A stretch of 57,826 bases of DNA from a virus (Duplodnaviria > Caudoviricetes): positions 1-57,826 of IMG/VR virus record IMGVR_UViG_3300006104_000001; one strand, given 5' to 3'. The first letter of the stretch is position 1. Each line of letters begins with the position of its first letter. Positions 7,052 through 31,800 of the stretch are shown here, piece by piece. Under the pieces are notes generated by a model. That model did not search any database, was not told where the DNA came from, and worked only from the letters and a program-made list of their open reading frames with translations. The translations under genes were made by a program, and so were the position numbers.

Positions 7052-7657
7052 TCAGGTTAGTGGCTGTAGTTGGTATCCGTCTGCTTGTTGGTTAGGGTAG
7101 AAAGAATATAAAAACCGTACTTCTGATGACCCACCGGATTTTGCTGAAGGATCAATACCTAGGAGAGATGCGGCTCGGATGCTAATTTCACCTAGCTTTC
7201 TTGCGGGTCCTGTATCTGCAACCACGGCCTCAACCAAAATTCCAGAAATGGTATCCTTGATGGTGCATCGAGATCCCAGAACAACACCCTTACAGGCCTT
7301 TGCTATAGCCCTATTAATGACGACATAAGAAACATTTTCTGAATCAACATATCTTGCTGGATCACTGGTAGCACACTGCTTGTGTTGAAGCGTTGTTGTT
7401 GAAATATAATACCCAGGAGCGGGATCGTTTTCTCCTTGGATGACTGGGTATCCATCATCATCTGTCACGATACCGCACCAGCGGTCTCCATCTTCTGCAT
7501 TGATTAGATAATCAAGCGTAGGCAAACCCGATTTAGTTGGCGCGTAAGCCCTTGGAGATCCATCGGCATCTACATCCGCTCTACCCATATAGGAGAAAGT
7601 CAGATCCTCGTTCTGGAAAACATCCTGTCCTTGGATGGTAGCGATTAAAGTCTTCAT
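7052..7657 (-). CDS. GH75 (chitosanase-like) hydrolase, candidate endolysin
   Basis: DVDADG, YVDSENVSYVVI, AVVADTGP and LGEISIRAASLLG motifs; directly after holin-like genes. Confidence 0.72.
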   Translation of the reverse strand: MKTLIATIQGQDVFQNEDLTFSYMGRADVDADGSPRAYAPTKSGLPTLDYLINAEDGDRWCGIVTDDDGYPVIQGENDPAPGYYISTTTLQHKQCATSDPARYVDSENVSYVVINRAIAKACKGVVLGSRCTIKDTISGILVEAVVADTGPARKLGEISIRAASLLGIDPSAKSGGSSEVRFLYSFYPNQQADGYQLQPLT

Positions 7658-7950
7658 GACTGAGATGACGTCAATGGTGTAATCGGAGGTGTGGGTTCGA
7701 TTCCTTTCTGTACCAATTTACTACCCCGATTAATGGTAAACCATCCGGCCAGGACTGTTCCAAGGGGAACAGGATTAAATGGGTTTTTAGGGTCATGGAA
7801 ATGAGATCCCAGAGTCACTGCTACCAAAGCAGTTATGCAAATTCCTAAAATGACCTCATGAAACCAGAATGGAGGACGAAGCGACGAAGGAGTTCCATCC
7901 GACTCACTAAGAGCGCGACGTATCCAGTCGATTGCTCCGGTGATGCTCAT
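7654..7950 (-). CDS. Holin-like membrane protein
   Basis: 98 aa with two hydrophobic segments; LSESDGTPSSLR N-terminal motif; upstream of the hydrolase. Confidence 0.6.
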   Translation of the reverse strand: MSITGAIDWIRRALSESDGTPSSLRPPFWFHEVILGICITALVAVTLGSHFHDPKNPFNPVPLGTVLAGWFTINRGSKLVQKGIEPTPPITPLTSSQS

Positions 7951-8426
7951 TTTAATGATTCCCTAGCGTGATGGATCCATCTTACGGACTGATCCCATGA
8001 AGGAATTGTAGGGATCACTTTTCCAATTATATCTAGGAAATGGTTAAGAACCCACATCCCGGAAAATAGACAAAGTGCAAAAAGAATCATGCTAAAAACC
8101 CACCCCTCTAGGGATGGGAAGTTTTTTAGAACTTGCCCTGCCAAGATAGGCCAGATCCAGAGAGAAAAAAACAAAGCACCTATTTCTACAATCACTTCGG
8201 TTCGGTGTTCCCAAAGATCACCACGAGCCGCCTGTTTAGCGTCATCGGCTTGCCACCAATCTCGTTGTCCCTCTACTTTCAGATAATCTGCTTGGGCATG
8301 GTTAAGTTCGTCTTTTTGCTGTGCTGAAAGTTGCTCTATTCCTCGTATAAGTGCGAGTTGACGATCAGATAACTGGCCGGCCACTGCAAAAGCACACATT
8401 AAAAAAAATAAAAGTATGGTTTTCAT
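7947..8426 (-). CDS. Membrane protein with signal peptide, coiled coil and two TM segments (spanin-like?)
   Basis: MKTILLFFLMCAFAVAG, coiled coil, two hydrophobic helices; lysis-cassette position. Confidence 0.5.
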   Translation of the reverse strand: MKTILLFFLMCAFAVAGQLSDRQLALIRGIEQLSAQQKDELNHAQADYLKVEGQRDWWQADDAKQAARGDLWEHRTEVIVEIGALFFSLWIWPILAGQVLKNFPSLEGWVFSMILFALCLFSGMWVLNHFLDIIGKVIPTIPSWDQSVRWIHHARESLK

Positions 8427-8635
8427 CGCGAATGTTCCAGGAGGATTGCTTTGTTTTCAATCTGATCATTGATGCCGGATGCACCTTGTATGTAAGTGTC
8501 TGGGGAAGAATTATGTAAATGTGAGCGAGGATCAGATGCACATCCGGTGATTGAACCAAGGATAAGTAGGAAAAGGATTGCGAAATAGATGATCATAAGG
8601 GCACCTGCTGTGATTTCTTTTGCGTAGGGTTTCAC
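8423..8635 (-). CDS. Small lipoprotein (o-spanin-like?)
   Basis: Hydrophobic signal then ITGC lipobox. Confidence 0.55.
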   Translation of the reverse strand: MKPYAKEITAGALMIIYFAILFLLILGSITGCASDPRSHLHNSSPDTYIQGASGINDQIENKAILLEHSR

Positions 8636-8922
8636 TTGTTGCTTGGAGGAATCAAATGATCCTCGATCCTCCTCGTTCTGGCATCGATGGCTTGGATCAA
8701 TGCCAATGCTGTTGCTAAAGCCTCTCTCCGTTGAGAATTATCTACCTCGATGGCCGCTATTCTTGCTTCTTGGGTTTTGTGCCCTTCCTCCAATGTTGCA
8801 ACCCTGTTGGGTAGCAAAGCATAACTCCAAAAAATCGTGCAAAATGCCGCTACGCCACTCAATCCTCCGAATAATGGCAAATGCTTGAGGATGTATCCTG
8901 AATGTTCCTTATCAGTAAACAT
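8632..8922 (-). CDS. TM plus coiled-coil protein (holin/XhlA-like)
   Basis: One TM segment followed by heptad repeats RVATLEE...RIEDHL. Confidence 0.5.
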   Translation of the reverse strand: MFTDKEHSGYILKHLPLFGGLSGVAAFCTIFWSYALLPNRVATLEEGHKTQEARIAAIEVDNSQRREALATALALIQAIDARTRRIEDHLIPPSNK

Positions 8923-9588: not shown

Positions 9589-11433
9589 TCATAGCTGAAT
9601 AAAAGGCGGCAATCCGATGAGTTGCCCAAGGTTAATTCCAGTGGTAGATCCACCTCCTGAACCGACGTATGTGCCAGTTTGCATCGACAACCCATAACTT
9701 ACCCCCAACCTGACATCCGATGGTGATGGGTAATTTGCGGATATAGTTCCACTTGGTATTGTTCCGTTTACATATCCTGTTTCGTAACTAAATGAGTAAT
9801 CATACGCAAACCCTGTAAAAGTTGGATCAAAATACCCATTAGTATAATAACTGCCAGACCACCCTCCTGAAGAAATTGAACCATTTAAGTATAAAATAGA
9901 AGCATTATAATAGGCATCAAAATCTATGCCGGAATAATAATCCGTAGATCCATTATTATAATGTTGCCCATCGTAACCTACATAAGCCGCAGATCCATTT
10001 ATGTAAAAAATGGTTGCATCGTAATTATAGTCAAAATCTGAACCAGTAAAGGAATCTAGAAAGCCATTGGTATAGTGTTGTCCTCCATATCCTCCTGACC
10101 CACCAGCGGTTCCATTTATAAAAAAAAGCTCTTCCCCATAATAATAATCATAATCTGCCCCAGTAAAGCTATCAGGAATTCCTTGGTAATAATGTTGTCC
10201 ATTATAACCATTATTGGCAATTAATCCGTTTACAAAGAAATAACTAGTTGAGCCAGTTGGATCAAAACCATAGTCTATAAATGAACCTGTTTGACCAGCA
10301 TATATGCCGTATAATGTACCATTAAATCCACCATCTACACCAACTCCATTAATATAGTATTGATTTGAATTGTTAGTAAAATCCGTTGCTGGTCCTGTGA
10401 AAGTATTGTCTGCTAATCCTGATGTGTAGTATTGACCATTCCATCCTCCATTGAGCAAATTCCCTTGATAATAATAAAGCCCATCAGATTGTTCACCAGA
10501 AACCAATGATTGTTGACGAAACCGAACAGAAGTAATATGGAGGGAATTTTCTACTAAACCTGTTGGTTGAATGAATAAAGCGTAAAAACCAACATCCCCT
10601 ATACCCTGAGTATCTTTTGATACTAATCCATCAATATAAACTATATTTGAAGATCCAGGCAAAGAGTTAGCATGGGTTGTAAACCCACTATCTAACCAGT
10701 AATTTGATAAATTACTGAGATCACCATCACCAGTAGAATTATTAAACCATAATTGGGGGCCGGCTGAAATTGTAAAATTTGGATAAGTAGTGCCAAACGA
10801 AGCTCCATATAGTTGCGTAACTTCTGCCGCCGACAATTCTCTTGTCCAATATCCCGCTTCATCGATTTGTCCGTTTTGCCCTACCGCATAAGTAGCATCA
10901 CCATTAGAATTGAAATTTATAGGGTGAATGATATTGCTGTTGATCGGTTTTCCGCTTGAGGAAATCTGACCGACACGGCTTCCATCAACATAGATAGACG
11001 TATGACCAAACTGATTCCATGTACCAACGATATGATGCCAATTACCGTCTTGAGTGTTAATCCCATTTCCATAAACCCTATCCCTTGATCCATCATTGTT
11101 AACAAGAACGCTAAAGTTTCCATACCCACCAGAACCCAATTCTTGACCAGAACTGCCGTATGATTGCCCAGATGAAGCATTCATGGCAAAAAAATCTGCG
11201 GTAGATTTTACCCATATTGCCATTGAAAGCTGGGTTAACCCAGTAGGAACAATGTTTGTTCCTGTGCTTAAATATGTATTACCTCCAGAGAAATTAGCCC
11301 CTTTACCTACTACTGCATCGACAAGATTAACATTAGACCCATTTTGGATTAGATTGTGACCATTTCCGGTTAAATCTGACCAACTTGTATCGTTAAAATT
11401 CCAATACGCTAAAAGATTGTCGGTAAGTGCCAT
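9589..11433 (-). CDS. LamG/concanavalin-A-like tail fibre or receptor-binding protein with Tyr/Gly repeats
   Basis: LLAYWNFND, DGNWHHIVGTW, SIYVDG and GQIDEAGYWTRELSAAEV LamG motifs; ~39-aa GYxGQHYxxG repeats; AT-rich. Confidence 0.78.
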   Translation of the reverse strand: MALTDNLLAYWNFNDTSWSDLTGNGHNLIQNGSNVNLVDAVVGKGANFSGGNTYLSTGTNIVPTGLTQLSMAIWVKSTADFFAMNASSGQSYGSSGQELGSGGYGNFSVLVNNDGSRDRVYGNGINTQDGNWHHIVGTWNQFGHTSIYVDGSRVGQISSSGKPINSNIIHPINFNSNGDATYAVGQNGQIDEAGYWTRELSAAEVTQLYGASFGTTYPNFTISAGPQLWFNNSTGDGDLSNLSNYWLDSGFTTHANSLPGSSNIVYIDGLVSKDTQGIGDVGFYALFIQPTGLVENSLHITSVRFRQQSLVSGEQSDGLYYYQGNLLNGGWNGQYYTSGLADNTFTGPATDFTNNSNQYYINGVGVDGGFNGTLYGIYAGQTGSFIDYGFDPTGSTSYFFVNGLIANNGYNGQHYYQGIPDSFTGADYDYYYGEELFFINGTAGGSGGYGGQHYTNGFLDSFTGSDFDYNYDATIFYINGSAAYVGYDGQHYNNGSTDYYSGIDFDAYYNASILYLNGSISSGGWSGSYYTNGYFDPTFTGFAYDYSFSYETGYVNGTIPSGTISANYPSPSDVRLGVSYGLSMQTGTYVGSGGGSTTGINLGQLIGLPPFIQL

Positions 11434-11442
11434 AAATAAGGC

Positions 11443-11679
11443 TTAACTTTTTGCGATATTGGTAATGTTTCCGTTTCCGTCTCTTGTGATCGTTGTGGTT
11501 TCAAGAACCTGACCTCCACGAGAAACTACGATCTGGATAGGCTTTCCGTTACCATCATTGGTGAATGCTTGGTTATCCCATCCGACGTTGGTTCCTGAAA
11601 CCATATCTAGAATCTTTGACAAGATAATGTGATCGGAATCAGATGTATCTGCTGTTGTGGGTTCGTATCGTTCGCTCAT
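11443..11679 (-). CDS. Hypothetical small structural protein
   Basis: Beta-rich C-terminus (TITRDGNGNITNI) in tail module. Confidence 0.55.
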   Translation of the reverse strand: MSERYEPTTADTSDSDHIILSKILDMVSGTNVGWDNQAFTNDGNGKPIQIVVSRGGQVLETTTITRDGNGNITNIAKS

Positions 11680-11743
11680 GGTAATTGGGGTTTGTGGTTA
11701 ATAGTGTAACAGATAAAATACTAATGCAGACGTAAATCAAGCA

Positions 11744-12493
11744 TTATGTTGACCCAACAGGGATAGCAAGGCCTCCCATGATAGGTAGGGTGAAAGTAAC
11801 ATGGATTGTCTCGTGATCGTAGGCCTGGGTAAGTGCCGAAGAACTTTGAGAAGAGCTTCTGGAAGAACTCTGACTGGAAGAGGTACTTCCGGACTGACTC
11901 CTACTTGAACTCTGGGAAGAACTGGTTGATCCGCTCTGGCTTCTGCTGGAACTTTGACTGGAAGAAGTGCTTCCAGACTGGCTCCTACTGGAGCTTTGGC
12001 TAGAAGAAGTGCTTCCGGACTGGCTCCTGCTGGAACTTTGACTAGAAGAGGTGCTTCCGCTCTGGCTTCTCGAAGATGATCTACTGGAACTTCTTGATGA
12101 TGATCTGCTGGAACTTCTGCTATCACTTCGACTAGAGGATCTACTCGAACTTCTACTGGAAGACCTACTTCCACTACGGCTCGATGATCTGGATCCACTT
12201 CTGGATCCGCTACGGCTCGATGATCTGGATCCGCTTTTGGATCCACTACGGCTCGATGATTTGGATCCACTTCTGGATCCACTACGGCTCGATGATCTGC
12301 TTGCGCTACGACTTGATGATCTGCTTGCGCTACGACTTGATGATCTGCTCGCGCTACGACTATTACTCCGGGAAGAACTTTGGGATCTTGAACTGCTCTG
12401 ACTAGAACTTTGTGATGTTGAATCACTGCGGCTCTGCTCTTGAGGAGAACCTATTGCGCTACCAGATTGGTTAAAGTTAATTGAAGATGGCAT
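11744..12493 (-). CDS. Ser/Arg repeat protein (basic half of charge-zipper pair)
   Basis: 26 x SxS(R/K) then 5 x SQSGSTSSSQSSSR; C-terminal strand IHVTFTLPI; synonymous codons vary between repeats in this frame. Confidence 0.85.
   Translation of the reverse strand: MPSSINFNQSGSAIGSPQEQSRSDSTSQSSSQSSSRSQSSSRSNSRSASRSSSRSASRSSSRSASRSSSRSGSRSGSKSSSRSGSKSGSRSSSRSGSRSGSRSSSRSGSRSSSRSSSRSSSRSDSRSSSRSSSRSSSRSSSRSQSGSTSSSQSSSRSQSGSTSSSQSSSRSQSGSTSSSQSSSRSQSGSTSSSQSSSRSQSGSTSSSQSSSRSSSQSSSALTQAYDHETIHVTFTLPIMGGLAIPVGST
11858..12379 (-). repeat. 12-bp and 42-bp coding tandem repeats
   Basis: 12068-12379 period 12 (SxSR); 11858-12067 period 42. Confidence 0.9.
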
Positions 12494-12495
12494 AA

Positions 12496-13296
12496 TTAGA
12501 CGTACCAGTTGAATGCGTTATATCCGTCTGCTGTAGAAGTGCTGGTGCTTGTTCCGGTTTCAGTTTGTGTTCCGGTTTCTGTGCCAGTTTCAGTTCCAGT
12601 TTCTGTACCAGTTTCGGTTCCGGTTTCTGTACCAGTTTCAGTTCCGGTTTCTGTACCAGTTTCAGTTCCGGTTTCAGTTCCAGTTTCAGTTCCAGTTTCT
12701 GTACCAGTTTCAGTTCCAGTTTCTGTACCAGTTTCGGTTCCGGTTTCGGTAGCAGTTTCGGTTCCGGTTTCAGTACCAGTTTCGGTTCCTGTTTCTGTTC
12801 CAGTTTCGGTTCCGGTTTCGGTAGCAGTTTCAGTTCCGGTTTCTATACCAGTTTCAGTTCCGGTTTCGGTGCCGTTTTCCAAAGAACTTTCTTGAGAAGC
12901 ACCAGAGTTAACCCCTGATTCAGTAAAGCTTTCTTGAGAGATGCCAGAGTTAACCCCTGATTCAGTAGAACTTTCTTGAGAGATGCCAGAGTTAATCCCT
13001 GATTCAGTAGAACTTTCTTGGGTTAAACCATTGTTTTGAGATACTTCATTAGAATTATCTGATGTAGATCCAAGTGAAACTTGTGAATCTTGGCCTGTTT
13101 CAACTTGCGTCGAAACATTGGTTTGGTTTTTGGGGAATTGGTTAAGACCTCCCCCGACGATAACCTCGTAATCAAACTGAACGCTTTCAGGCAATGCCAC
13201 GATCACGTTCTGACGACCAGAAATCACGCCATTCTTGATCGACAACAAGACATTGTTGATGGCACTGGCTACATTGGATAGTTGAATCAGTGGCAT
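12496..13296 (-). CDS. Thr/Glu repeat protein (acidic half of charge-zipper pair)
   Basis: N-terminal helix plus VQFDYEVIV strand, ~4 x 14-aa SGISQESSTESGVN-type repeats, then LENG and 25 x TETG-type. Confidence 0.85.
   Translation of the reverse strand: MPLIQLSNVASAINNVLLSIKNGVISGRQNVIVALPESVQFDYEVIVGGGLNQFPKNQTNVSTQVETGQDSQVSLGSTSDNSNEVSQNNGLTQESSTESGINSGISQESSTESGVNSGISQESFTESGVNSGASQESSLENGTETGTETGIETGTETATETGTETGTETGTETGTETGTETATETGTETGTETGTETGTETGTETGTETGTETGTETGTETGTETGTETGTETGTETGTETGTQTETGTSTSTSTADGYNAFNWYV
12571..13032 (-). repeat. 12-bp and 42-bp coding tandem repeats
   Basis: 12571-12882 period 12 (TETG); ~12877-13032 period 42. Confidence 0.9.
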
Positions 13297-13300
13297 AGTG

Positions 13301-14170
13301 TTAGAATCTCCAAGGTGTCATGACAAAATTCATTCCAGGCCCCGCATCGGGAGCCATCTTGGACAGTAAATCCATCGCCCTTTGCAACCCTGTTTGTGCA
13401 ATCTTGGGGTCGTAATCATTAGGCCACAGGGGTCCTCCTACCATGCGGCTTAATGCCATCGGGAAGAGGATGGAGAAAACGTGCTCATCCGAAACAGGAA
13501 GGGGTGTCGGGCTAATGAGTTGTTTTAGAGTATATTGAAGCGGCCTTACCTCCATGTTCACCTTTAAGGTTAAAGGGCGATCTGGGATCGGGATAAGTCG
13601 CAGATAAAAGTATGGGGAGGCCCCGGAGGCCTGCCCTTGCGCTTCCACCACAAATCGCAAGGGATAACCTATCTGAGCCTCACCCAAGAATCTTCCCTCA
13701 TCGGGTTGTCTAAGAAGGTATCGAACAAAGATCCCATTGTTAAATAGTTCCGGATCTCCTGAAAACCTTGCGAAGTTTGGAGCTAGTGGGAACGCATCCG
13801 TATAGTACGTTGCCGTTACTGACCCTGTATTTCCCTGATAAGGAAGATCTAGAGTATTGGTGTCGATGATGCGGTTCATCTGGGAATCCCCAGGGATCGA
13901 TATGGAGAGTCCTATTAGTGACGGATCGACGCCTGTTATTGAGGTGCTTCCATTTGTCACCCCGACAACACAAGTGTTGGGAGCCTGAATGTTGAAAGTA
14001 ACATTTGATTTTACCCTGTATGGAGAAGGGGCGGCGGCAAAAAACTCGGCGATTGCCGAATTGATGGCATCCAGGACTTCTGTGGCATCGTCTGCCGGCA
14101 TGGAATGGATGTCCCTTACCTTCAGGTGACGGCAAATGCGTGATGCAAGTTGGAGAATTGTCGTACTCAT
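13301..14170 (-). CDS. Podovirus-type head-tail adaptor / tail tubular protein
   Basis: Helical N- and C-termini (VLDAINSAIAEF) around a beta core with GYPLRF...LRLIPIPD; downstream of MCP. Confidence 0.6.
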   Translation of the reverse strand: MSTTILQLASRICRHLKVRDIHSMPADDATEVLDAINSAIAEFFAAAPSPYRVKSNVTFNIQAPNTCVVGVTNGSTSITGVDPSLIGLSISIPGDSQMNRIIDTNTLDLPYQGNTGSVTATYYTDAFPLAPNFARFSGDPELFNNGIFVRYLLRQPDEGRFLGEAQIGYPLRFVVEAQGQASGASPYFYLRLIPIPDRPLTLKVNMEVRPLQYTLKQLISPTPLPVSDEHVFSILFPMALSRMVGGPLWPNDYDPKIAQTGLQRAMDLLSKMAPDAGPGMNFVMTPWRF

Positions 14171-14928
14171 TAGGATTTACCTTGTTGCGGATCAACCTCC
14201 GTATCGAAGTCCTCCCTTGGCTTGGGGTTGAGCAGTTTAAGTTTTTCAATCGCTTTGTCGTAATCTGCGGAGAACATCTGGGCTTCATCCTTTAGGATCC
14301 AATAATGAGATCGCATTGCATGACCGCGAGCTAGTGGCATGAGGTATGTTTCCATCCAATCAAGCGGGATCGGGAGCGTAACGGCATTGAGTGCCGCCGC
14401 TCCGGTGGAATGATTGGCCGAGTAATTGGCAACCAAAGTTCCATCAAGTTCGGGCACCTCGAAGGTCGTGACAACAGTGACGGTTAGCGGTGTTCCGCTT
14501 ACGGCACTTGGGGTAATGTGCAGAATGCTTCCTGGGTTTGCCGTGTAGGTACGCTCTAACCAGAATGCTTCTGGGGATCCTGCGGTGGCACTTGGGTTGT
14601 AGGTTGCCGCATACCAATCCAATTCTTCCTTCCGGTTTAAGGGGCGCAGTCTTGTGATGCCATCGGGTCCGATGACCTCGATGACTCTCGTGCTTTCCTG
14701 AATATTGAGCGGTTGATTTGCTACATTCGAGCTATTGGATCCAAAGGTAACATTTGTGTAAGTGGTGAACCTGAAGAACTCCCCTGTCTCACGGAAAATA
14801 TCCTGAATTGCCGCATTGATGGCATTGGTGGCGACATCTGCAATAAATGCCGGTGCATTGACTGGCTGTTCCATCCCCAGGAGGCGATAGAGGTCATCGA
14901 CGACCTTGGAGAGGTTCAGCATACTCAT
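14170..14928 (-). CDS. Second adaptor-like protein (paralogue of 13301-14170)
   Basis: ATNAINAAIQDIF, GSPEAFW...LHITPS and LPIPLDW...YLMPLA architecture. Confidence 0.6.
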   Translation of the reverse strand: MSMLNLSKVVDDLYRLLGMEQPVNAPAFIADVATNAINAAIQDIFRETGEFFRFTTYTNVTFGSNSSNVANQPLNIQESTRVIEVIGPDGITRLRPLNRKEELDWYAATYNPSATAGSPEAFWLERTYTANPGSILHITPSAVSGTPLTVTVVTTFEVPELDGTLVANYSANHSTGAAALNAVTLPIPLDWMETYLMPLARGHAMRSHYWILKDEAQMFSADYDKAIEKLKLLNPKPREDFDTEVDPQQGKS

Positions 14929-18214: not shown

Positions 18215-18481
18215 ATGAATGCGATTTATCCAGAAAATATCAGGGCAAAAGCCGAGCAACACTTACTTGCGCTTAATGCACTCAAGGGGCAACCGGCTTG
18301 GAAGCACTATCTTCTTCCAAGGTTAGCGGAACATGAGGAGAGTGCATTACAGGCAATGCTTGAAGACGACATCGATGCCAATGAAAGGGAGATTCGGCAT
18401 CGGATCTGGCGTGCAATTCAATCAATGGCTAAATTTCCAGAAACGGACGAGCGATCCGCTAGATCAATCGTCAATTCTTAA
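18215..18481 (+). CDS. Small helical protein resembling the portal-proximal podovirus gene, on the opposite strand
   Basis: MNAIYPE...AWKHYLLPRL...REIRHRIWRAIQSMAKFPE; fills the gap, ATG at 18215. Confidence 0.6.
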   Translation: MNAIYPENIRAKAEQHLLALNALKGQPAWKHYLLPRLAEHEESALQAMLEDDIDANEREIRHRIWRAIQSMAKFPETDERSARSIVNS

Positions 18482-19500
18482 ACAGGAACAAAGGGTTGTT
18501 CCTTCTGCCGGAGGTGTCCATAGGTTTGTTCGTTAAGATCATGCCACGCTACATGATGAACAATCTCTGTTTTGCCATCACGCTCACGGCGCTTGATATG
18601 GTCGCATACAACATGAGGGACACAGGCAATTCGTAACCCTGCTGGCTTCCACCTCCTGTAGCAAAGGTGCAAATCTTGAGTTCCATGTCCGGAATAAGAT
18701 GAGAAATCCGCAAGTGCCAAAGCGTGCTTGCTCATGAGAGTGCACCCCAATCCGCACCAGTCCGATGGGACAATCGCACCGAGGCCGATGGCCGGATATG
18801 CGAAGTCCAGCCAACCACGCTTTCTCCATCCATGTTTGGCCGTGATTTCCCAGATATTTCCGTCAGGGGGTGATTTTTTCACCCATTCACGAAGTCTTGC
18901 CATTCTTTTCATTTCCCTCTCTGCGGATTTTTTATCATTTACTGACTTCAATCGTTGTTCCGATTTTTCGAGCAACAGGGAAAGCCTTGGTTTTAGTTTA
19001 CGCTCATGAGGCTTAAAATCTTCGTAAATATGTTCATTGTGGCTTCCATGCCCTCCTAAAAAAAGACCATTGGGGTAAGTTCCAGCGGCGACCTGATAGT
19101 AGGGATTACCGACAGCATCCGGCATGGAGAGTGTCCACTCAAGAACTCGAAGTGCATTTGCCGGCGGTATGGTGTCACTTTCCACCGACCAACAGATATC
19201 GCTCTTAATGCGTCTTGCAAAAGCAAAAGCCGCACCCTGAAGTTGTGCAATACGAATTTGAGCCTCTTGCTTGTAATTTTTAACATCCTCTTCGATGGGC
19301 AATCTAATGACACTGATTTTCCAGTTTTCGGGAAGCGTGCTTTTTGCGAACTCCTCGGCTTTTTTACTTTCTTCACTAAGATCAGTTGCAAAAATAAAAT
19401 GCCCCTCGTCATGATGAGATGCGGCAACTGCTATTGCCCTGATGAGAACCCCCCATGCATGGAGATACGATTTCGTGGCGGCGGTACAGATAGTGATCAT
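18478..19500 (-). CDS. GT-A fold (GT2-like) glycosyltransferase
   Basis: ITICTA N-terminal strand, SVESDTIPP (DxD equivalent), WCGLGCTLMS, QDLHLC and CDH motifs. Confidence 0.72.
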   Translation of the reverse strand: MITICTAATKSYLHAWGVLIRAIAVAASHHDEGHFIFATDLSEESKKAEEFAKSTLPENWKISVIRLPIEEDVKNYKQEAQIRIAQLQGAAFAFARRIKSDICWSVESDTIPPANALRVLEWTLSMPDAVGNPYYQVAAGTYPNGLFLGGHGSHNEHIYEDFKPHERKLKPRLSLLLEKSEQRLKSVNDKKSAEREMKRMARLREWVKKSPPDGNIWEITAKHGWRKRGWLDFAYPAIGLGAIVPSDWCGLGCTLMSKHALALADFSSYSGHGTQDLHLCYRRWKPAGLRIACVPHVVCDHIKRRERDGKTEIVHHVAWHDLNEQTYGHLRQKEQPFVPV

Positions 19501-24031: not shown

Positions 24032-25129
24032 TTATACTTGTGTTTTGGGTTTATAGCCAGCCTTCTCTTTCAGGATAAATTCATACCAGAGCCACGATTT
24101 TTCAGGATTTCCAGATCCCTCATGGAGTTGCCAGTTTCGAGCCTCCTTTGCCATTTCTTCTCGTTTCTTGGGATTAAATGCCAAGCACGAGGCGTAATAA
24201 CTGGCCTCATCTGCTGAATTACAGAGAAAACCAGTCACTCCGTGCTGAATTTGTTCCTTAAAACCCTGAGTATTTGATCCTATTGGGACACATCCACTAA
24301 GCATTGCCTGGGTGGTGGAGATTCCATAACTTTCTAGGAATGGGTAGTAATGAAGCAGACAATGGCTTGTCGCGTAAAGTTCCGACATCAGCAATGGATC
24401 AGAAATATGATCATTGAGAATGACATTGAGTGAACCATTCCACTTGCTCGATGGGTCACAAGGATTTCCCACCTTGTAAAGCGCCTTTTCCCCCCATCCG
24501 GCCACCTCTATCTGAACCTTAATTCCAGCCGGTGCCATGATGGAGCTAAACATTCTCCAACTCTCTTCATGCCATTTTTCAGAATCATCGCGGGAGGCTT
24601 TGAGCACCCTGAACTCCTTGCGATTTTTCTTTTTGGGGGCAAGCGGCATATAACGACTCTTGGGATTGATATAGATCTGATACCCTTTGCGGTGACAGAT
24701 TCTTGTCCCCTTTCCGGCGGCCTTGACAAGTTGAGGGCCAACAAGATCTCCATTACTTGTCGTTTGAAAGAAATACTCATCGACAAGGCCATCTTGGATC
24801 GCACTGATCTCGGCATCGATCAAATGGGACATACAACTACTCCAGATCATCCATTTTGGCCTGTCTGAATACTGCCTCATGTAGTCAAAGCACTTGTCCT
24901 CTCCAAAGCTCATCAGGATCTTGCACTCCTCGAACATACCTGGCCGGTAATGAACGACCGGCACTCCGAGTTGCCTTAAAAAGTTAGCCCTACCACTATC
25001 TACGATAGGGTCTCCCATTGGCACGATGCACCGAACAGGTACATTTTTAGATTTCAGGAGTTCTATTGCACCAAGGAGTTCAGGACCACATCCTCCGGCC
25101 TGATGAATGATTCCAAAAAACGAAATCAC
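24032..25129 (-). CDS. GT-B fold (GT4-like) glycosyltransferase
   Basis: ESYGISTTQAMLSGCVPIGS...GFKEQIQHGVTGFL; second Glu of ExxxxxxxE replaced by Gln. Confidence 0.85.
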   Translation of the reverse strand: MISFFGIIHQAGGCGPELLGAIELLKSKNVPVRCIVPMGDPIVDSGRANFLRQLGVPVVHYRPGMFEECKILMSFGEDKCFDYMRQYSDRPKWMIWSSCMSHLIDAEISAIQDGLVDEYFFQTTSNGDLVGPQLVKAAGKGTRICHRKGYQIYINPKSRYMPLAPKKKNRKEFRVLKASRDDSEKWHEESWRMFSSIMAPAGIKVQIEVAGWGEKALYKVGNPCDPSSKWNGSLNVILNDHISDPLLMSELYATSHCLLHYYPFLESYGISTTQAMLSGCVPIGSNTQGFKEQIQHGVTGFLCNSADEASYYASCLAFNPKKREEMAKEARNWQLHEGSGNPEKSWLWYEFILKEKAGYKPKTQV

Positions 25130-25803
25130 TGAACTTCCTCCATTTTTACGCCGTAGATTACGTTAAAATGATGCTCGCAGGATTCTTGGAAAGTAATGCC
25201 ACTGCAATTTAGAGAAAGATCTGCCAAGCGACTATAGTAATCATGAGATCTGCGTTTGATTACTTCTTTTGTGACATAATGTTGAGATCCCCATACACCG
25301 CAACTATAGGCAGGAACATGATACTCAGGCGGAACAATCCATGTCAGATTCCCAAATGCAGATCCTTTTCCGACACTTGTATGGAAAGGCCTAGAATTGC
25401 AGAAATAATCAAAAATGTTTGTCATTTTTTCCCTATTCACTTCTAACAGAATTTCACTGGTATGCCCTATGAATGGTGCTCCTTGTAAAAAAACAATGAT
25501 GTCATCCAGATTTTCGTAATTTCTGTCAATCCAACGAATCCACTGACCGCAATCCCATCCCCCATTAGGAGTTTTTTCAATTTTTGCATTGATACCTTTA
25601 GGTATTTCCGGAACTTCACCTGCCTGAGAAATGGTGATGGAAAAATCTTTAGGCAACGCAGTTAGCCATTGAAGTTGCTCTTTGTAATGCGCCACGACAA
25701 CTCGAACACTTGGCAATTTATTGATGGGCGTAGAAATAGTGGCGGAAAGGTATTCAGTATTGTTTTTCATAGGTGGTGGTTTTGTGTCTGTTTTAATTTC
25801 CAA
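25126..25803 (-). CDS. DUF3431-like glycosyltransferase-related protein
   Basis: VVVAHYKEQLQWL, YENLDDIIVFLQGAPF and SQHYVTKEVIKRRS motifs. Confidence 0.72.
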   Translation of the reverse strand: MEIKTDTKPPPMKNNTEYLSATISTPINKLPSVRVVVAHYKEQLQWLTALPKDFSITISQAGEVPEIPKGINAKIEKTPNGGWDCGQWIRWIDRNYENLDDIIVFLQGAPFIGHTSEILLEVNREKMTNIFDYFCNSRPFHTSVGKGSAFGNLTWIVPPEYHVPAYSCGVWGSQHYVTKEVIKRRSHDYYSRLADLSLNCSGITFQESCEHHFNVIYGVKMEEVQ

Positions 25804-28800
25804 AAAGCATCTGCTGGATACTCTTTGTTTTAGGCCTCATTGAGGACAATACCTGTTGTTTAGCGTCCTTTCGGCTCTGTTCAAGGATTTTATGGACAAG
25901 TTTATGGTCTTCCTCAGTGGGATTTTTAGCCATTTGTGGAGTGATTGCGGCGCGGGTAGCTTGTTGGAATGCTTTTCCTGCTAGTTCCGAATACTTCCGG
26001 AACATCTTGTCATCCATGTAGTGAACTTTACCTGTCACTGGATCGACATACCTGCGGGTTGGCTTATCCGGGGCAAATGCCTCGTCCGGATGCTTGGCAT
26101 TCCAGTTGGCAAAAAGCCTATCTGCCGGTTCGACCTTGGGTACTTCCCTACCCTGCATTGGGGTCAACCTAGAAACCATAGTCCCCTCTTTCTTGATGGG
26201 ATTGCCATAGAGATCGATCCTGGGTTCATTGAGTGAACCAAATGGCAATGCTGATTGACCTACCCGCTGGGCAATGCGTGGGATGAGTTCTTTGGGGTTG
26301 CCCTCAACGCTTGTTTCCCTGACATAAGGATCTGATGCCCGGATTGGCTGGCGTAACAGGTTGGGCACAAAGCTCGCGGCAAAGTTTGCCGCCCAGTCTG
26401 CGGCGTTTTGAGGGTCACTGGTAACTCCGGCGATATCTTTTAATCCTTTACCAAAAGATTTTTCCTGAAATTGATTCCATATACCGCCAAAAACCTGCCC
26501 TAAGATTTCTTTTCCACTGGCTCCATCGCGAGCAGACTTTGCGGCTCTAATCATGTCAAGGGTTGTACCAAGGACTGTTGCAATAGGCTCGATGCGGCCA
26601 TAATTGTAAGTGGTTCCATTGACCTTGATATGATAGGCAGGAACCCCAAGACGTTCGGATAATGCCTTGTCTCCCTTGTTGTGGGATTCACTGCTTCCAG
26701 TAAATAGGATTTTTTTCTTGTCGTCGTCCTGATCTCCTGCGGCGGCACCCCAGAGAGCGGCCATCAACGACCATGCGAGAATCTGCTCTGAAGTGTCTCG
26801 GATCATTTCAGCGCCGGCATAGGGATGGGGGTTAAGTTTTCCGTCTTGGAATTTGTAAAAACCCTCTCGCCCCATCTTGTAGAGCATGGTTGCCGTACCT
26901 ATAGGTGATTTTCTAATTCCTACGCGGGGGATATTGTAAAGAACGCGTACAAAGGGTATGAAGAATCTTCCAGGAGTATATCCCCTGAGGCCACGTTGAA
27001 GAGCTTCCGCTCCGGCCTCGACGATGTTGCCACCCGACTCATCCATGTTCCGAAGTGGTGTCTGGAAAGCCAGATTTACGGCATGGCTAACAGCACGCTC
27101 CCATGATTGAGATCCAGGTGTCGTGATTTCGCTTTGAATGTATTTCGCCATCTCATCGCCTTCATATCCCTCGGCCTTGGCAGATCTGTAGGCCTGTGCC
27201 CCGACTTCCATGTGGGCGATGATGGTTTTCACGGCATCGTCCATGAAGGCCAGTGCCCTCATTGGCATACGGATGATCCTGCCTGCCTTGCCGGGAATAG
27301 CGCCACTTGATGCATGACCGACGATCTGCCCCTGATCGAGCTTCAGATTGTGACCCAACAGATCATAGTCGATCATGGATTGTTCGGCGTCCCATGCACG
27401 AAGGCCTGCTCGGACAGCATTGCTTACCCCTGGAACGATTCCTTTCATGATATATTTGAACTCTCCCATCTGAGTTCCCTCTGGATTGCCGATTGCCGAA
27501 TTTACTAAAGCCTCCATGCCTCTCTGTATGGTGTAATCAATCGCTCCATTAACACCCATTCCGGTAAAGTTAGCCGCGTGTGTCACCATTCCTGAAAGGA
27601 TTGAGGACATCCAGTATTCGTGAACCATGTTTAGGGCATTTCCGTTACTTGCAGAAATGGTACGTCCCAGTTTGATCGCATCGACAGGATCCGCGATATT
27701 GAAAGTGCGATTGGGCTTCTTCTTGGCAAGACCTGCATCCTCACCCATTCCCATGAGTTCGAGTGCTTTCTGAAACTCGGATTCAGCTTTATCAAGGTTG
27801 ATTGGAGATCTGGAGTTGAGTCCGGATGGCGGTTGCTCGATGTCACTGGCACTCATTCCTTTCTCGAACTTGGCAAAATGCCTTGAACGGAAGCTGTCTT
27901 GAAATTGTTTCTTGAGGTTTTCGACCTGCTTGACGCTTAATCCGGTGGCTTTTGCAGTGTTTTCAAATGTTTTTCCCTTCTGAAGGAGCCTGATTGCCGT
28001 TTGCTCATTGGGACGGAAACTTCCGATCAGGTTTTCGCTGACCTTGCTTCCGATCAAGGAGACCTTGACCTCTCCGTTGAGGATGTCGTCAAGAGAGACG
28101 CCCATGCTTTCGAGAGCTTTCTTTGCTGATTCCATCTGGGCATCGACGATTTTTGAAAGAGCATTAGACTTTTCTGCGGCATCTTCTATTGCATCGATCC
28201 TACGAGATTCTTCAGGAGATGGTGAAAAGATCATCTTTGCCAGAAACTCACGATGGCGATCTGCCGGTGACTGAAAGGGATCCACGCGGGATCGTAATCC
28301 CCTCGCCTGTTCGGTTCCTGTCTGACGATAGGCATAGATCAGTTTGGCAAGTTCGGCACGTTTTGCGCTGTCGGTAGAGGCTCCGGCGAGTTCACGAGCC
28401 ACCATCATCTGAGCGGCCTTTGTCTCGGCAGGATTCAGGGTTCCGCCATTCATTCCGGCATCCATGATCCGCTGGCGAGTACCAGCATAGTCATTATCAA
28501 GAAGGTTTTTCCCCTCTGCGGACCACTGGGATTCTTTCTGCTTGGTAGCGATGGTTTTTCGGTACTCATCAACTCCCATGATCTGCGGATCAAGGGCACC
28601 TAATCCTAATTTAGGGTTTCCAATGGTACGACTTCCGGATTTCTCTGCCTTGGCTAGATTTTGCCAATCAGAGATGTCCCTCATGGCATTTTCCACATCG
28701 CCTTTCAGGTCAGATCCTTCTGGATTGAGTGGGTTTCTTGCAAAAAGAGTATTCCTTCCCGACTGATCGGGTGGCGTGGGGCGATCATTGATCCCCTTAA

Positions 28801-31800
28801 ACATGACATCAAATGGAACAATCTTGCCATCTGGCCTCTTAATGAAGTTTCCCTCATGAGCATCACGCATGAGGATTCCTGTATCTCCATGCTTGTATTG
28901 ACCATATCCATAGTCCCCGGCAAATGGCTCCCACCCCTGAGTTTTTAGGTATTCAGGAAGATCATTGCCGGTAGGGTGCAGGCCTTCGAGGTAAGGTTGG
29001 GAAGTCCAGATGGATGGTTTTCCGGTTTTTGGATCTTGGCTTATTCCAAGGAAATCAACTTTTGCACTTGGAACCTCCCGCGAAAACTCATCTAGCCTCC
29101 GTAAGTATTGGAAGGCTGATTTGCCTGGGAATCCATATTTTCCATTTGCCGTAGCCTTAACAAGGCGCTGGGTTCCATCGCTTCCTGTTATCTTCCAAAC
29201 ATGGTGCTCTGTTTGGCCTGCATTATTTTTGTCTTTTGAAAACTCATCAATAGCATCTTGAGGGATGATCCTATTGTTTTCTTTTGCCCAATCAATGAGG
29301 GCCTTGTCATGATCCCCGATTACACGATTGTCGCTGACGACCCCCGCATATTCCGGTGTTTTGCCCCCAGTAATTTCGACAAACGCGCGTTCCGCTGGAA
29401 TTGCTTGTCCGACTCCTCCTTGCTCAAGGTCTGCGGAAGTGATTTCTCTGGGAAGAGCGGAGGGCGTCCGGTTTTCTGTGCTGTTTTCTGTGTTGTCATG
29501 CGTTAAGTCTTCATTATCCCAAGACAATTTGCCAAGGTTTTCTTGGGTGCGTCCGGCCATTTTATCGCGGATGGCCTGCATTTTCTCTTCTGGGCTGAGC
29601 GGTTCGCGGGAATCAAGCCCCTGCGGCTTTCCTTTGATGGGGGTATAGGATAGCTTTTCCCCATTGTCGGAAAGGAACTTGTAGAAGTCCTCAAGTTTAC
29701 CAGGAAGCAGAGAGCCGCGCATGAAGTTTCCTTTGCGAACCATTTCTCCACCTGCGAAGAACTTGTTAAAGACAGGGTTTTGCCAGTATTTGCCACCTGA
29801 CGCCTTGCTCTGGGGAACCTGAACAAACCGGACTTGTGACTGAATGGGGTCACTCGTGATCGTAAGTGTTTTATCTCCATTTTGGATATCGTAATCCTGA
29901 GCTTTTACAAAACTTTGGAAATCATTGATCGGTTGCCTGTTAAGATCCTGAGTTGCACGGATTTTGGTGAAATTGTTTGGGAGAAGGATACCCATCTTGC
30001 TTTCTCCGGAGTCAGTCGTGTAATTGATGACTTGGCCTGTGCCTCGAAGTTCTGCCAAGGCGGCAAGTAGATTTCCAGTAACGATGTTTCTGGTATTGGA
30101 AACGTCTGCGGTGGCATCCCACTCCCTTGCACCGCTTCCAATGGCAATCTGGAACTTGTCGATCTGCGAAGCCGGAACCTTCAGGGTATTTGTGGTGTCG
30201 TTTGTACGGATAGTGAAGATTTGCTTACTGGGTGTGATCGGGCTGGATTTATCAAGATCAACGGATTCGATGACGGCCAGGCCTTCTGACCCATCAGGTC
30301 GTGTGTAGGAAAGAATACGACCCATCATTCTCATTCCAGTGGCAACAGTGCTTGCCATCTGGCGTTGCTGGGCTAGGAAGCTCTCCTTCTTCTCATCCGT
30401 CCAGTTAAGGGATCTCTTGGCCTTAACCTGCTCGGCTTCCGTATAGAAGTCGCGGGCCATTTTTTCGTAGTTCTGCAAATCATTACTGGAAGTTGCCCTC
30501 TTGTTGGTGGCAAGCGTAGCCGCCTCATCTCCACTAATGGGCTTTTTACCCATCTCTGCATGGACTGTTTCCAGATAGCTCGGATCGGAAAACACCGAAT
30601 CCCCATCTCCGGCGTGCGTAAAGACTTCACTGGCCGTTGTCTTGGCCTTAATGTCCATCGGCTTTGCTTCCAGATCATTCTGTCCCAATTCATTGAGATA
30701 ACTGATGTGGGCATTGTATTCATCCGTCACCTTGTCCCAGAAGTTTTGCTGTTCCTCGACAGGAAGGACAGCCAGGTAACTGGTGATCATGCGGGCAGTA
30801 TGGCCGTCCGGATGCTCCTCCATTGCTGATTTTATATCATCGAAACTCTTTATTTCCCCATCATCACTGAAAAAGTTTTTCTTGAGTGAACCGCCAAGGT
30901 TGAAAAGCTGATTGGCGAGATCCTTATCCTTCATGAGGAACCGGAAGGCGATTTCGTCACCATATTTGTTGTAGATGTCGGTGTTCTTGATCCCCTCACT
31001 GACATCGCTTTTAGCATTGCTGGTCGTATTGGCATTCAGTTTAGCCATCTTGCTTGCAAGGATCGCGGCTGGGCGCTTCTCTGCGGGAAGAGCAGTTTGA
31101 AGAAGCGTGTATTCCGGAAGCCTAACTTGCCCGGTTCGGTTAATGCGTCCCAGCGTTTGCATGAACTCGTTGATGTCCTGATGGGGCTGGGCAACGATCA
31201 TGACGCGGGGAGACTGATCCTTGGCCGTCTCACTTGCATGGAGACTGACTCCGGTTGAACCACTCTGGTTCAGGATAACAAAATTCAGAGGGCTATTATT
31301 AAATGCCTTGATGACATTTCCCTTGTGAATGCTGGTTTTCTGCTCGTGATCTGGGCGTGAGTAGATTTCGTTGTATTCATCAAGCCTAGATTTCCGACCA
31401 GTGATTTCGTCAGTAGCAAAGTTATTACCCGATTTCTCAACCTTACTTCTGATATAATCGATTGGGGAAATGGGAAGATCACCCAGATCGGCCTGGTCGA
31501 TCTCGGCGCGGGCATCCTGGTGGACATCCCACATTTTGCGTCGCATCAGTTCTTGAGCGGCCTTTGGATCTGCCTCAACAACCTTTGTTCCATCTGGAAG
31601 AACACCTTTTTTGACAATGGCCTGTGCAAGCTGATTGTCGCTGAGACTAGCGAACTCTGGATCAGGAACTCCTGTGATGGTGAACTTTTCGTGTTCGTCG
31701 TTGGCATTCTTTTTTCCAGTCTTAAAGGTAAGCATTCCATCGAGATACTTTTGGGTAATCCCCTTATAGGACATATCGTAGCCACCATTTTTAAGATCTT

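Follow-up and report, generated by a model that had tools for sequence, protein, structure and literature searches.

Why should two adjacent genes of a tailed virus encode proteins whose long repeat arrays mirror each other in order, spacing and charge? The question is raised by IMG/VR virus record IMGVR_UViG_3300006104_000001 (Duplodnaviria; Caudoviricetes), all 57,826 bp of which were analysed and are referred to here as the window. It is a complete podovirus-like genome, with an N4-type capsid and SU10-type portal and adaptors, and on its minus strand it carries gene A (12496..13296; 266 amino acids) and gene B (11744..12493; 249 amino acids), with a gap of 2 nucleotides (nt) between the stop codon of A and the ATG of B. 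An earlier note on this DNA had read the pair as a giant antiparallel beta hairpin split into two genes and held together as a charge zipper. Comparison with related loci strongly supports an in-register, antiparallel co-assembly of A and B, and of a third chain, A2, which accompanies them in one clade; the fixed residue register proposed in the note is borne out by the co-varying lengths of the repeat arms and by transfer of the register to a relative, L040 (L numbers denote related loci). On balance, A and B are probably subunits of one extended, all-beta structure of the virion tail, a barrel stem being the favoured form.

Mirrored arrays and charge register in the window

Protein A comprises an N-terminal helix and strand, five 14-residue units, 26 TETG units and a short aromatic C-terminal tail. 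Residues 1-50 (13147..13296; this and the following segments of A and B are all on the minus strand) form the conserved anchor of the A family, a helix at 6-27 followed by the strand 'LPE..F.YEV'. The acidic 14-residue units (residues 66-139; 12880..13101) supply the series D70, E84, E98, E112 and E126 and additional Glu residues at 94, 108, 122 and 136, the last of which is also in phase with the 4-residue series. That series occupies residues 140-246 (12559..12879), with 26 Glu at every fourth position from E140 to E240, then a 2-residue insert and one further Glu, E246, which comes after a 6-residue step. The distal tail (residues 247-266; 12499..12558) contains aromatic residues, and its Y/W/F motif recurs at the C-terminal end of A homologues. 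Protein B presents the blocks in mirrored order: a short N-terminus, 26 S-R-S-x units, five 14-residue units and a conserved C-terminal strand. Its basic series starts with R36, a 2-residue insert and 26 Arg or Lys at 4-residue spacing from 42 to 142 (residues 36-142; 12068..12388), and continues with R156, R170, R184, R198 and R212, one in each of the five 14-residue units (residues 143-216; 11846..12067). Residues 217-249 (11747..11845) are the B-family anchor, a C-terminal strand with the motif F-[ST]-[VL]-P-[IF], in which F234 is an invariant column. A scripted recount found all residue positions given for the two proteins in the earlier note to be correct, and the mirroring of the blocks (five 14-mers, 26 4-mers) and of the 2-residue insert was as described there.

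At the DNA level, Tandem Repeats Finder reported periods of 12/24 nt and 42 nt in both genes, with a 42/84-nt period over the 14-residue units of B. The arrays are indeed not reverse complements of each other, the best long overlap without gaps having 37-38% identity and the blastn E values at least 0.74; an origin of the B array as a direct or inverted copy of the A array was rejected, there being no DNA similarity on either strand. The arrays also keep long open reading frames (ORFs) open in other frames or on the other strand (11737-12426, minus; 12051-12401, plus; 12509-12918, plus). Gene callers may choose these alternatives, a possible reason why neither A nor B was present, by exact sequence, in the large protein collection.

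Every antiparallel and parallel register of A against B was scored for Arg or Lys of B facing Asp or Glu of A. The best was antiparallel, at i+j=282, where acidic residues of A stand opposite 32 of the 33 Arg/Lys of B and K56 of A stands opposite D226 of B, both as the note had claimed. This register brings the two inserts of 2 residues (A 241-245, B 37-41) opposite each other, sets Thr opposite Ser on the other face, and places the extra Glu of the A 14-mers opposite Gly (E94 opposite G188). The next-best antiparallel register, 278, gave 31 pairs because the extra Glu at 94, 108, 122 and 136 take over there, and the best parallel register gave 28; the register of the window is therefore not unique to within one 4-mer. 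This near equality of 278 and 282, and the several frames that the repeat arrays hold open, are what could be said for coincidence, that is, for two unrelated low-complexity genes with similar repeat counts. That the match goes beyond chance is shown less by the window than by its relatives, through 42 length-matched pairs and co-located insertions and deletions (indels).

Co-variation of the two genes among relatives

The search for relatives started from the capsid protein. The large protein collection held 103 proteins related to it; 25 of them were aligned to give the locus query, which retrieved 79 viral, 19 genome and 4 metagenome loci. The 19 genome loci, from named assemblies, were almost all assigned to Verrucomicrobiota (e.g., Luteolibacter, Chthoniobacterales, Prosthecobacter), with one labelled Burkholderiaceae and one 'bacterium'. 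Of the 67 related loci with 3.5 kb or more of sequence beyond the capsid gene, 49 proved to have an A-type gene following the adaptors, as detected by a profile seeded with the first 62 residues of A (jackhmmer). The start of B lies between -8 and +23 nt from the A stop, and the C-terminal strand motif of B is common to the relatives and the window. The A family has a conserved N-terminal helix and strand and the B family a conserved C-terminal strand, with hypervariable polar arms between these ends, and in one large clade (clade 2) a second A-type gene, A2, follows B. The family to which the window pair belongs is wider and undescribed, and the window has its most regular member; no earlier description of length-matched A/B genes was found in open-access papers and preprints. 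A pair is also found in a cultured strain, on a 63 kb scaffold of Luteolibacter pohnpeiensis KCTC 22041 (L085, 12746-13610), which carries a capsid relative of 41% identity; the two proteins are 156 and about 129 amino acids long, the start of B having been picked by eye, 4 nt past the A stop.

Arms were measured from the 'LPE' motif to the C-terminal end in A and from the N-terminal end to the Phe motif in B, and identical pairs were counted once. Loci in which A or B runs off the contig (L002, L007, L008, L023 and L064) were left out, as was L004, which has no B candidate; L017, with no B anchor motif, was omitted from the arm statistics only. Total lengths of A and B were correlated with r=0.972 and a slope of 1.06 (39 distinct pairs, from 46 loci with complete genes), arm lengths with r=0.988 and a slope of 1.03 (n=42 distinct pairs), and the arms of A2 and B with r=0.998 and a slope of 0.97 (n=19). 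The check suggested in the earlier note, co-variation of the repeat regions in homologous pairs, was therefore positive, one residue for one. Within clades, the arm difference between A and B was 13 in five of six pairs of the first, with arms of 148-250 residues (permutation p = 0.017), 17 in all seven pairs of the second (permutation p = 0.00075) and 15-20 in all 11 pairs of the third (0 of 20,000 permutations). The sole outlier was L006 (14065-14586), with an A identical to that of L101/L102 (12065-12658), whose B is 24 residues longer; the extra residues are TTTG units, and with them the clade constant is restored. Assembly has probably collapsed the repeats of B in L006, a warning that counts of repeats taken from short-read contigs may be in error.

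Close relatives differ by indels that lie at the same level in all three chains. Between L035 and L108, there is a change of +12 residues at 31-42 past the A1 anchor, 27-38 before the C-terminal anchor of B and 28-39 past the A2 anchor; between L026 and L039, a change of +6 residues lies at 80-85 in A1, at 78-83 in B (counted back from the C-terminal anchor) and at 81-86 in A2. The inserted sequences differ among the chains and are therefore not copies of one another. If the same indels are measured from the N-terminal end of B, offsets of +1 and -47 are needed, so a parallel arrangement of A and B does not fit. A2, in the one clade that has it, reads as parallel to A1 and in the same register. 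Coincidence is a negligible explanation of all this: the 42 distinct pairs with r=0.988 and a slope of 1, the constant within-clade differences and the co-located indels are counted as refuting it, and both reading frames are fixed by conserved non-repeat ends.

The register itself could also be carried over from the window to relatives. When 282 is corrected for where the two conserved motifs lie in L040, the expected register becomes 286. The arms of L040 have sequences unrelated to those of the window (TGST/GSSS in its A, NENR in its B), and the score for Gly of A against Arg/Lys of B peaks at exactly 286, with 42 matches (rank 1 of 451; best parallel register, 37). Each chain of L040 has a lone +2 irregularity (A 203-209, B 77-83), and these coincide at 286. 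For L042 the predicted register is 184, at which residues 95-163 of A, with its Gly array, cover the same rungs as residues 21-89 of B, with its Arg/Lys array; the score was 20 at 188 vs 19 at 184 (rank 2 of 247). The charges of the window, the transfer to L040 and the co-located indels are three independent lines that set B antiparallel to A at the level of single residues. As a general test, the charge/Gly register score was rejected, as it discriminates only in strongly periodic, charged arms (the window, L040 and partly L041).

The arms as probable strands of a proposed virion tail structure

Wherever both partners are periodic, their periods agree and are even: 4 or 8 in six pairs, 10 in all three chains of L030 and L031, 14 and 4 in the window, 16 in L095, 18 in L041 and L063, and 6/12/18 in L016 and L018. 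With even periods, a two-residue, in/out alternation is preserved. Proline accounts for 46 of 14,021 arm residues (0.3%) vs 5.3% in other ORFs of the same loci, and I, L, V, F and M, outside the end motifs, account for about 5% of the residues of B and 3-4% of those of A. The even periods, together with the composition and the scarcity of proline, make it likely that the arms are beta strands.

Most A arms are net acidic and most B arms net basic, the extremes being the window, L041 and L082. The charge zipper of the earlier note describes the window well, but fails as a general rule, as relatives carry both charges on one chain. In L005, L069 and L101, this chain is A, with NENR units, its partner B being a neutral TSTG chain; L040 and L042 show the converse, with both charges on B. 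The NENR array of L005 (in gene A) has 82-84% DNA identity to the array of L040 (in gene B), and the TSTG array of L005 (gene B) 86-87% to that of L042 (gene A). These identities indicate that repeat cassettes are reciprocally exchanged between the two adjacent genes in close relatives; the regions concerned are L005 13352-14625, L040 13343-14952 and L042 10059-11056. The idea that the L003 TETK array and the L005 NENR array are related by a frameshift was rejected, since blastn alignments were confined to the ends of the genes.

Composition could be read quite differently, with the arms as flexible, possibly O-glycosylated, mucin-like tethers that are joined at their ends, selected for total length only, and with the Glu/Arg match of the window as a fuzzy electrostatic complex. 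The low-complexity Ser/Thr/Gly/Asn composition and low AlphaFold2 (AF2) confidence would suit such tethers, as would glycosyltransferase genes in the structural module of the window and of relatives (20 and 16 loci). Equal totals would suffice for tethers, yet the +12 and +6 changes are no more than 4 residues apart in all three chains, and the lone +2 irregularities of L040 are opposite each other. Proline, which is usually frequent in disordered linkers, is nearly absent, and all repeat periods are even. The tether explanation is accordingly considered very improbable.

The tail assignment of A and B derives from their neighbours. The minus-strand order opens with the terminase, a protein of 4,981 amino acids, glycosyltransferases and the SU10-type portal, the N4-gp56-type capsid protein and two SU10-type adaptor paralogues; it continues with A, B, an ORF of 78 amino acids (11443-11679) that separates B from the next gene, a fibre-like protein with a Laminin_G_3 domain (9589..11433, minus; 614 amino acids), and membrane/lipoprotein ORFs. 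Adaptor paralogue 1 (14170..14928, minus; 252 amino acids) matches Pfam SU10_adaptor at 29.6 bits vs a cut-off of 27, and paralogue 2 (13301..14170, minus; 289 amino acids), immediately upstream of A, at 20.4 bits, under the cut-off. The AF2 model of paralogue 2 has a predicted local distance difference test (pLDDT) score of 94.8 and Foldseek probabilities of 0.97-1.00 to the adaptors of A4, VP1, GP4, DEV, N4, Moo19 and SU10; a HMMER search gave 431 relatives, which were used only for the alignment behind this model. By Pfam match and predicted fold, then, the two genes upstream of A are SU10-type head-to-tail adaptors. The ORFs scanned contained no tail tube, tape measure or nozzle family, so that the note's description of a genome with no visible tail tube or tape measure was fair. 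Lying between adaptor and fibre genes, A and B are likely to encode a component of the virion tail, and the fibre-like protein is a possible distal partner for it. In this protein the Laminin_G_3 domain precedes numerous units, each about 30 residues long and rich in Tyr, Gly and Asn, with the pattern 'GQHY..G..D.F.G.D.D'; the protein had no homologue among the fetched loci.

The nearest structural parallel is the lower collar of phi29. A structural account of that tail (PMC6542822) gives gp11 residues 103-258 as two antiparallel strands of 180 Å, twelve such hairpins forming a 24-stranded tube with an outer diameter of 55 Å and an inner one of 32 Å, and both chain ends folding together at the proximal side. 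The lower collars of phi29 (gp11) and of related picoviruses would share with the predicted A/B assembly a pair of long antiparallel arms with their outer ends proximal, placed as a stem below the portal or adaptor. In composition, the gp11 strands (polar-small 0.51-0.54, acidic 0.17-0.18, basic 0.13-0.16, hydrophobic 0.13-0.17, Pro 0) are close to the A arms (0.60, 0.17, 0.09, 0.13 and 0, respectively); like the A/B arms they are polar, rich in Thr, Ser, Asn, Asp and Lys, and proline-free. Unlike A/B, gp11 is a single polypeptide, with a loop at its distal end, and its adaptor is a large alpha domain of the same protein; the A/B hairpin would be split over two or three genes, its adaptors are separate proteins, and its arms are hypervariable and up to about 3.5 times longer.

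In the proposed stem, several A/B units would close round the tail axis under the adaptor ring to give a water-exposed beta barrel, with the topology of a phi29 gp11 hairpin that has been cut at its distal loop into two genes and has left the adaptor role to separate ones. The N-terminal helix and strand of A and the C-terminal strand of B are placed by the register at the same, head-proximal, end, and the aromatic C-terminal tail of A and the short hydrophobic N-terminus of B at the distal end. Arm length would set stem length, which at about 2.6 Å per residue (the phi29 scale) would be about 50 nm here and about 10-65 nm across the family. Contacts between strands would be Glu-Arg pairs in the window, and relatives would keep the same geometry with other polar pairings, Arg/Lys against Gly and Glu against Ser. 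A closed tube is, in our analysis, the best single structural model for A/B, at a little short of an even chance. More tentative still is the wider proposal of a new class of tail part: a free-standing, water-filled beta-barrel nanotube or ribbon bundle of split hairpins, its length of about 10-65 nm set by even-residue blocks at the same level in all chains, its cassettes interchangeable and its Ser/Thr faces maybe glycosylated by phage glycosyltransferases.

The register evidence fits a ribbon and a tube equally, so a non-tubular version of the same co-assembly has to be weighed, in which a thin beta ribbon of two or three strands, or a bundle of ribbons, would act as a central spike, a whisker, or a stalk that keeps the fibre, the product of the next gene, at a fixed distance from the tail. 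The three-gene clade readily suggests a sheet of three strands in which B, the chain richest in Ser and lowest in charge, takes the centre, and adaptor and fibre genes persist in relatives that lack the pair, as would be expected if the stalk is an accessory. There is also a precedent in phage N4, where gp53 forms long free-standing beta-sheet protrusions at this place in the tail (PMC13434306). An isolated sheet of 150-250 residues that is polar on both faces would, however, be without known means of stability, and the dodecameric adaptor ring directly upstream, together with the phi29 precedent, favours closure into a barrel; we consider the ribbon unlikely.

N4 also provides the model for another alternative, less likely again than the ribbon: the three chains could be ejection proteins, kept without a fold inside the capsid or the tail lumen until they leave the virion and form a polar conduit across the host envelope, with arm length matched to the thickness of envelope or capsule. 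The window shares an N4-type capsid with N4 and the Schitoviridae, and has A and B at the place, after the neck and tube genes, where N4 has the plug gp53 and the small ejection protein gp52, downstream of the tail-tube gene gp54 (PMC13434306). The N4 gp52 has an N-terminal peptide inside the tail tube and a long part that is not seen, and A has a similar plan, a short N-terminal helix and then a long stretch for which modelling of A by itself gave no fold; chains that are polar and lack proline could be kept in an unfolded state. On the other side, A and B have, on inspection, no hydrophobic helix of the kind reported for gp52, and no homology was found. The near-identical relatives L042 and L040 differ two-fold in arm length (111 vs 213), which is hard to tie to the width of a periplasm, and in clade 2, unlike in a compact ejection cassette, A2 is set apart from A1 and B by a membrane-protein gene beside lysis-like genes.

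Several observations weigh against the favoured reading of A and B as parts of an all-beta tail structure. A recognisable A gene was missing from 18 of the 67 loci, one of which (L091) has a diverged pair by eye; in loci lacking the pair, the adaptor leads directly to small proteins and fibres, so that phages of this group can do without the pair as a DNA conduit. Where A1, B and A2 are all present, a barrel could close with every strand antiparallel only at a ratio of 1:2:1, the alternative being a parallel seam between A2 and A1. The best register of L041 was 322 vs a predicted 321, and a shift by one would flip the faces. Measured from the anchors, A and B are offset by 13 residues in both the window and L040 and by only 2-4 in the indel pairs, so that either the register near the anchors differs between clades or the anchor motifs are not equivalent. 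Among most clade 2 pairs the predicted register ranked anywhere from 1 to 131, and for most pairs of weak charge the score was uninformative. The propensity of Ser, Gly and Asn for beta structure is low, and period-2 alternation is missing in about half of the arms, although as a test for beta structure this alternation was set aside, since it is missing in the gp11 strands too and does not discriminate. The AF2 monomer of A has a helix at 6-27 and an unpaired segment, with pLDDT of 74-88 over residues 1-40 and below 50 beyond about residue 57; low values in the arm would be expected of a strand that requires a partner, and equally of disorder. Neither the N-terminal domain of A nor A2 had a homologue in 50,697 deposited phage genomes (tblastn), and no Pfam or PHROG family matched A or B, apart from a weak match to phrog_7187 (E 0.0044). 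The two families show no sequence homology to gp11 either (hhalign probability 0.33% and 0.10%), and the analogy drawn in the note with phi29 gp11 thus stands for topology and composition, but not for descent as judged by sequence.

Two other kinds of assembly offer points of comparison. In the 'polar zippers' of Perutz and in alternating-charge beta peptides, strands are held by repeating complementary polar or charged side chains, like the Glu/Arg of the window and the NENR of relatives; these zippers are homotypic and mostly known from model peptides or aggregates, and A and B are two gene products of matched length, with a single pairing and a defined register. Collagen heterotrimers and keratin pairs likewise come from separate genes with repeat regions of equal length for in-register assembly. 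Their period is 3 or 7, their chains are parallel and their lengths are evolutionarily stable; unlike them, A and B have even periods, one chain is antiparallel, and lengths shift in step between close relatives.

Neighbouring genes and wider meaning

The head and tail module of the window also contains three glycosyltransferase-like genes (24032-25129, 25126-25803 and 18478-19500, all minus), with matches to GT1, DUF3431 and, weakly, GT2, and homologues in 20, 4 and 16 of the fetched loci, respectively. Ser/Thr-rich arms would be obvious candidate substrates for such enzymes. The giant ORF (25793-40738, minus; 4,981 amino acids) has the Strawberry-notch-type helicase domains AAA_34 and Helicase_C_4 and a weak methyltransferase match, which rule it out as an N4-like virion RNA polymerase and set the window apart from N4. 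We take it to resemble large packaged anti-restriction proteins such as P1 DarB.

After the fibre gene, a group at 7052-8922 (minus) encodes a 96-residue protein with an N-terminal membrane helix and coiled coil, a 70-residue lipoprotein-like ORF, membrane proteins of 159 and 98 residues, and a protein of 201 residues. Judged by eye, this is likely a lysis cassette; Pfam gave no match for the ORFs of 96, 159, 98 and 201 residues, the 70-residue ORF (8423-8635) lying outside the scan. In clade 2, the gene between B and A2 encodes a tail-anchored membrane protein of 83 amino acids, and beyond A2 lie the gene of a lipoprotein whose membrane helix is C-terminal, and then a CHAP-like gene. Proteins of this sort (83-85 amino acids, N-terminal coiled coil, C-terminal membrane helix) occupy the B-A2 gap in clade 2 and follow the fibre gene in the L005 clade; next to them is a lipoprotein with a C-terminal membrane helix that resembles a unimolecular spanin, with a CHAP-like gene in L018 and L019 (regions L018 14716-16090, L019 14477-15728, L005 17411-18267); all these assignments were made by eye.

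Other searches added little. Sequence searches of the PDB with A and B returned low-complexity, SR-type proteins only, and with both adaptors and the 597- and 490-residue ORFs nothing meaningful. DNA and protein searches of deposited phages gave one low-complexity match of 101 bp and one distant capsid match. Residues 1-95 of A had no match in a word-index protein search, and adaptor 2 alone, as a locus query, retrieved nothing from viral or metagenome contigs. The ESM Atlas gave no usable feature match, all structure results having a template-modelling (TM) score below 0.5, and a promoter and terminator scan did no better than on shuffled sequence.

It is seldom that quaternary structure can be read from natural sequence alone, as it can here from residue-exact co-variation between separate genes and from compensating insertions that share one level in all three chains. 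The pairing rules seen here (Glu/Arg, Arg/Lys-Gly, Thr/Asn-Ser/Thr, and even periods only) are usable for designed heteromeric beta assemblies of set length and, if the nanotube reading is true, would amount to an instance in nature of a 'molecular ruler by co-variation' and could guide the design of beta-sheet nanotubes from more than one kind of chain. A scaffold of the cultured Luteolibacter pohnpeiensis KCTC 22041 carries an A/B pair, and the question is therefore open to experiment. If the stem model is true, podovirus-type phages of Verrucomicrobiota would set the length of their tails without a tape measure, by matching the lengths of strands, and could change that length fast, with a bearing on how far they reach through capsules and envelopes of varied thickness.

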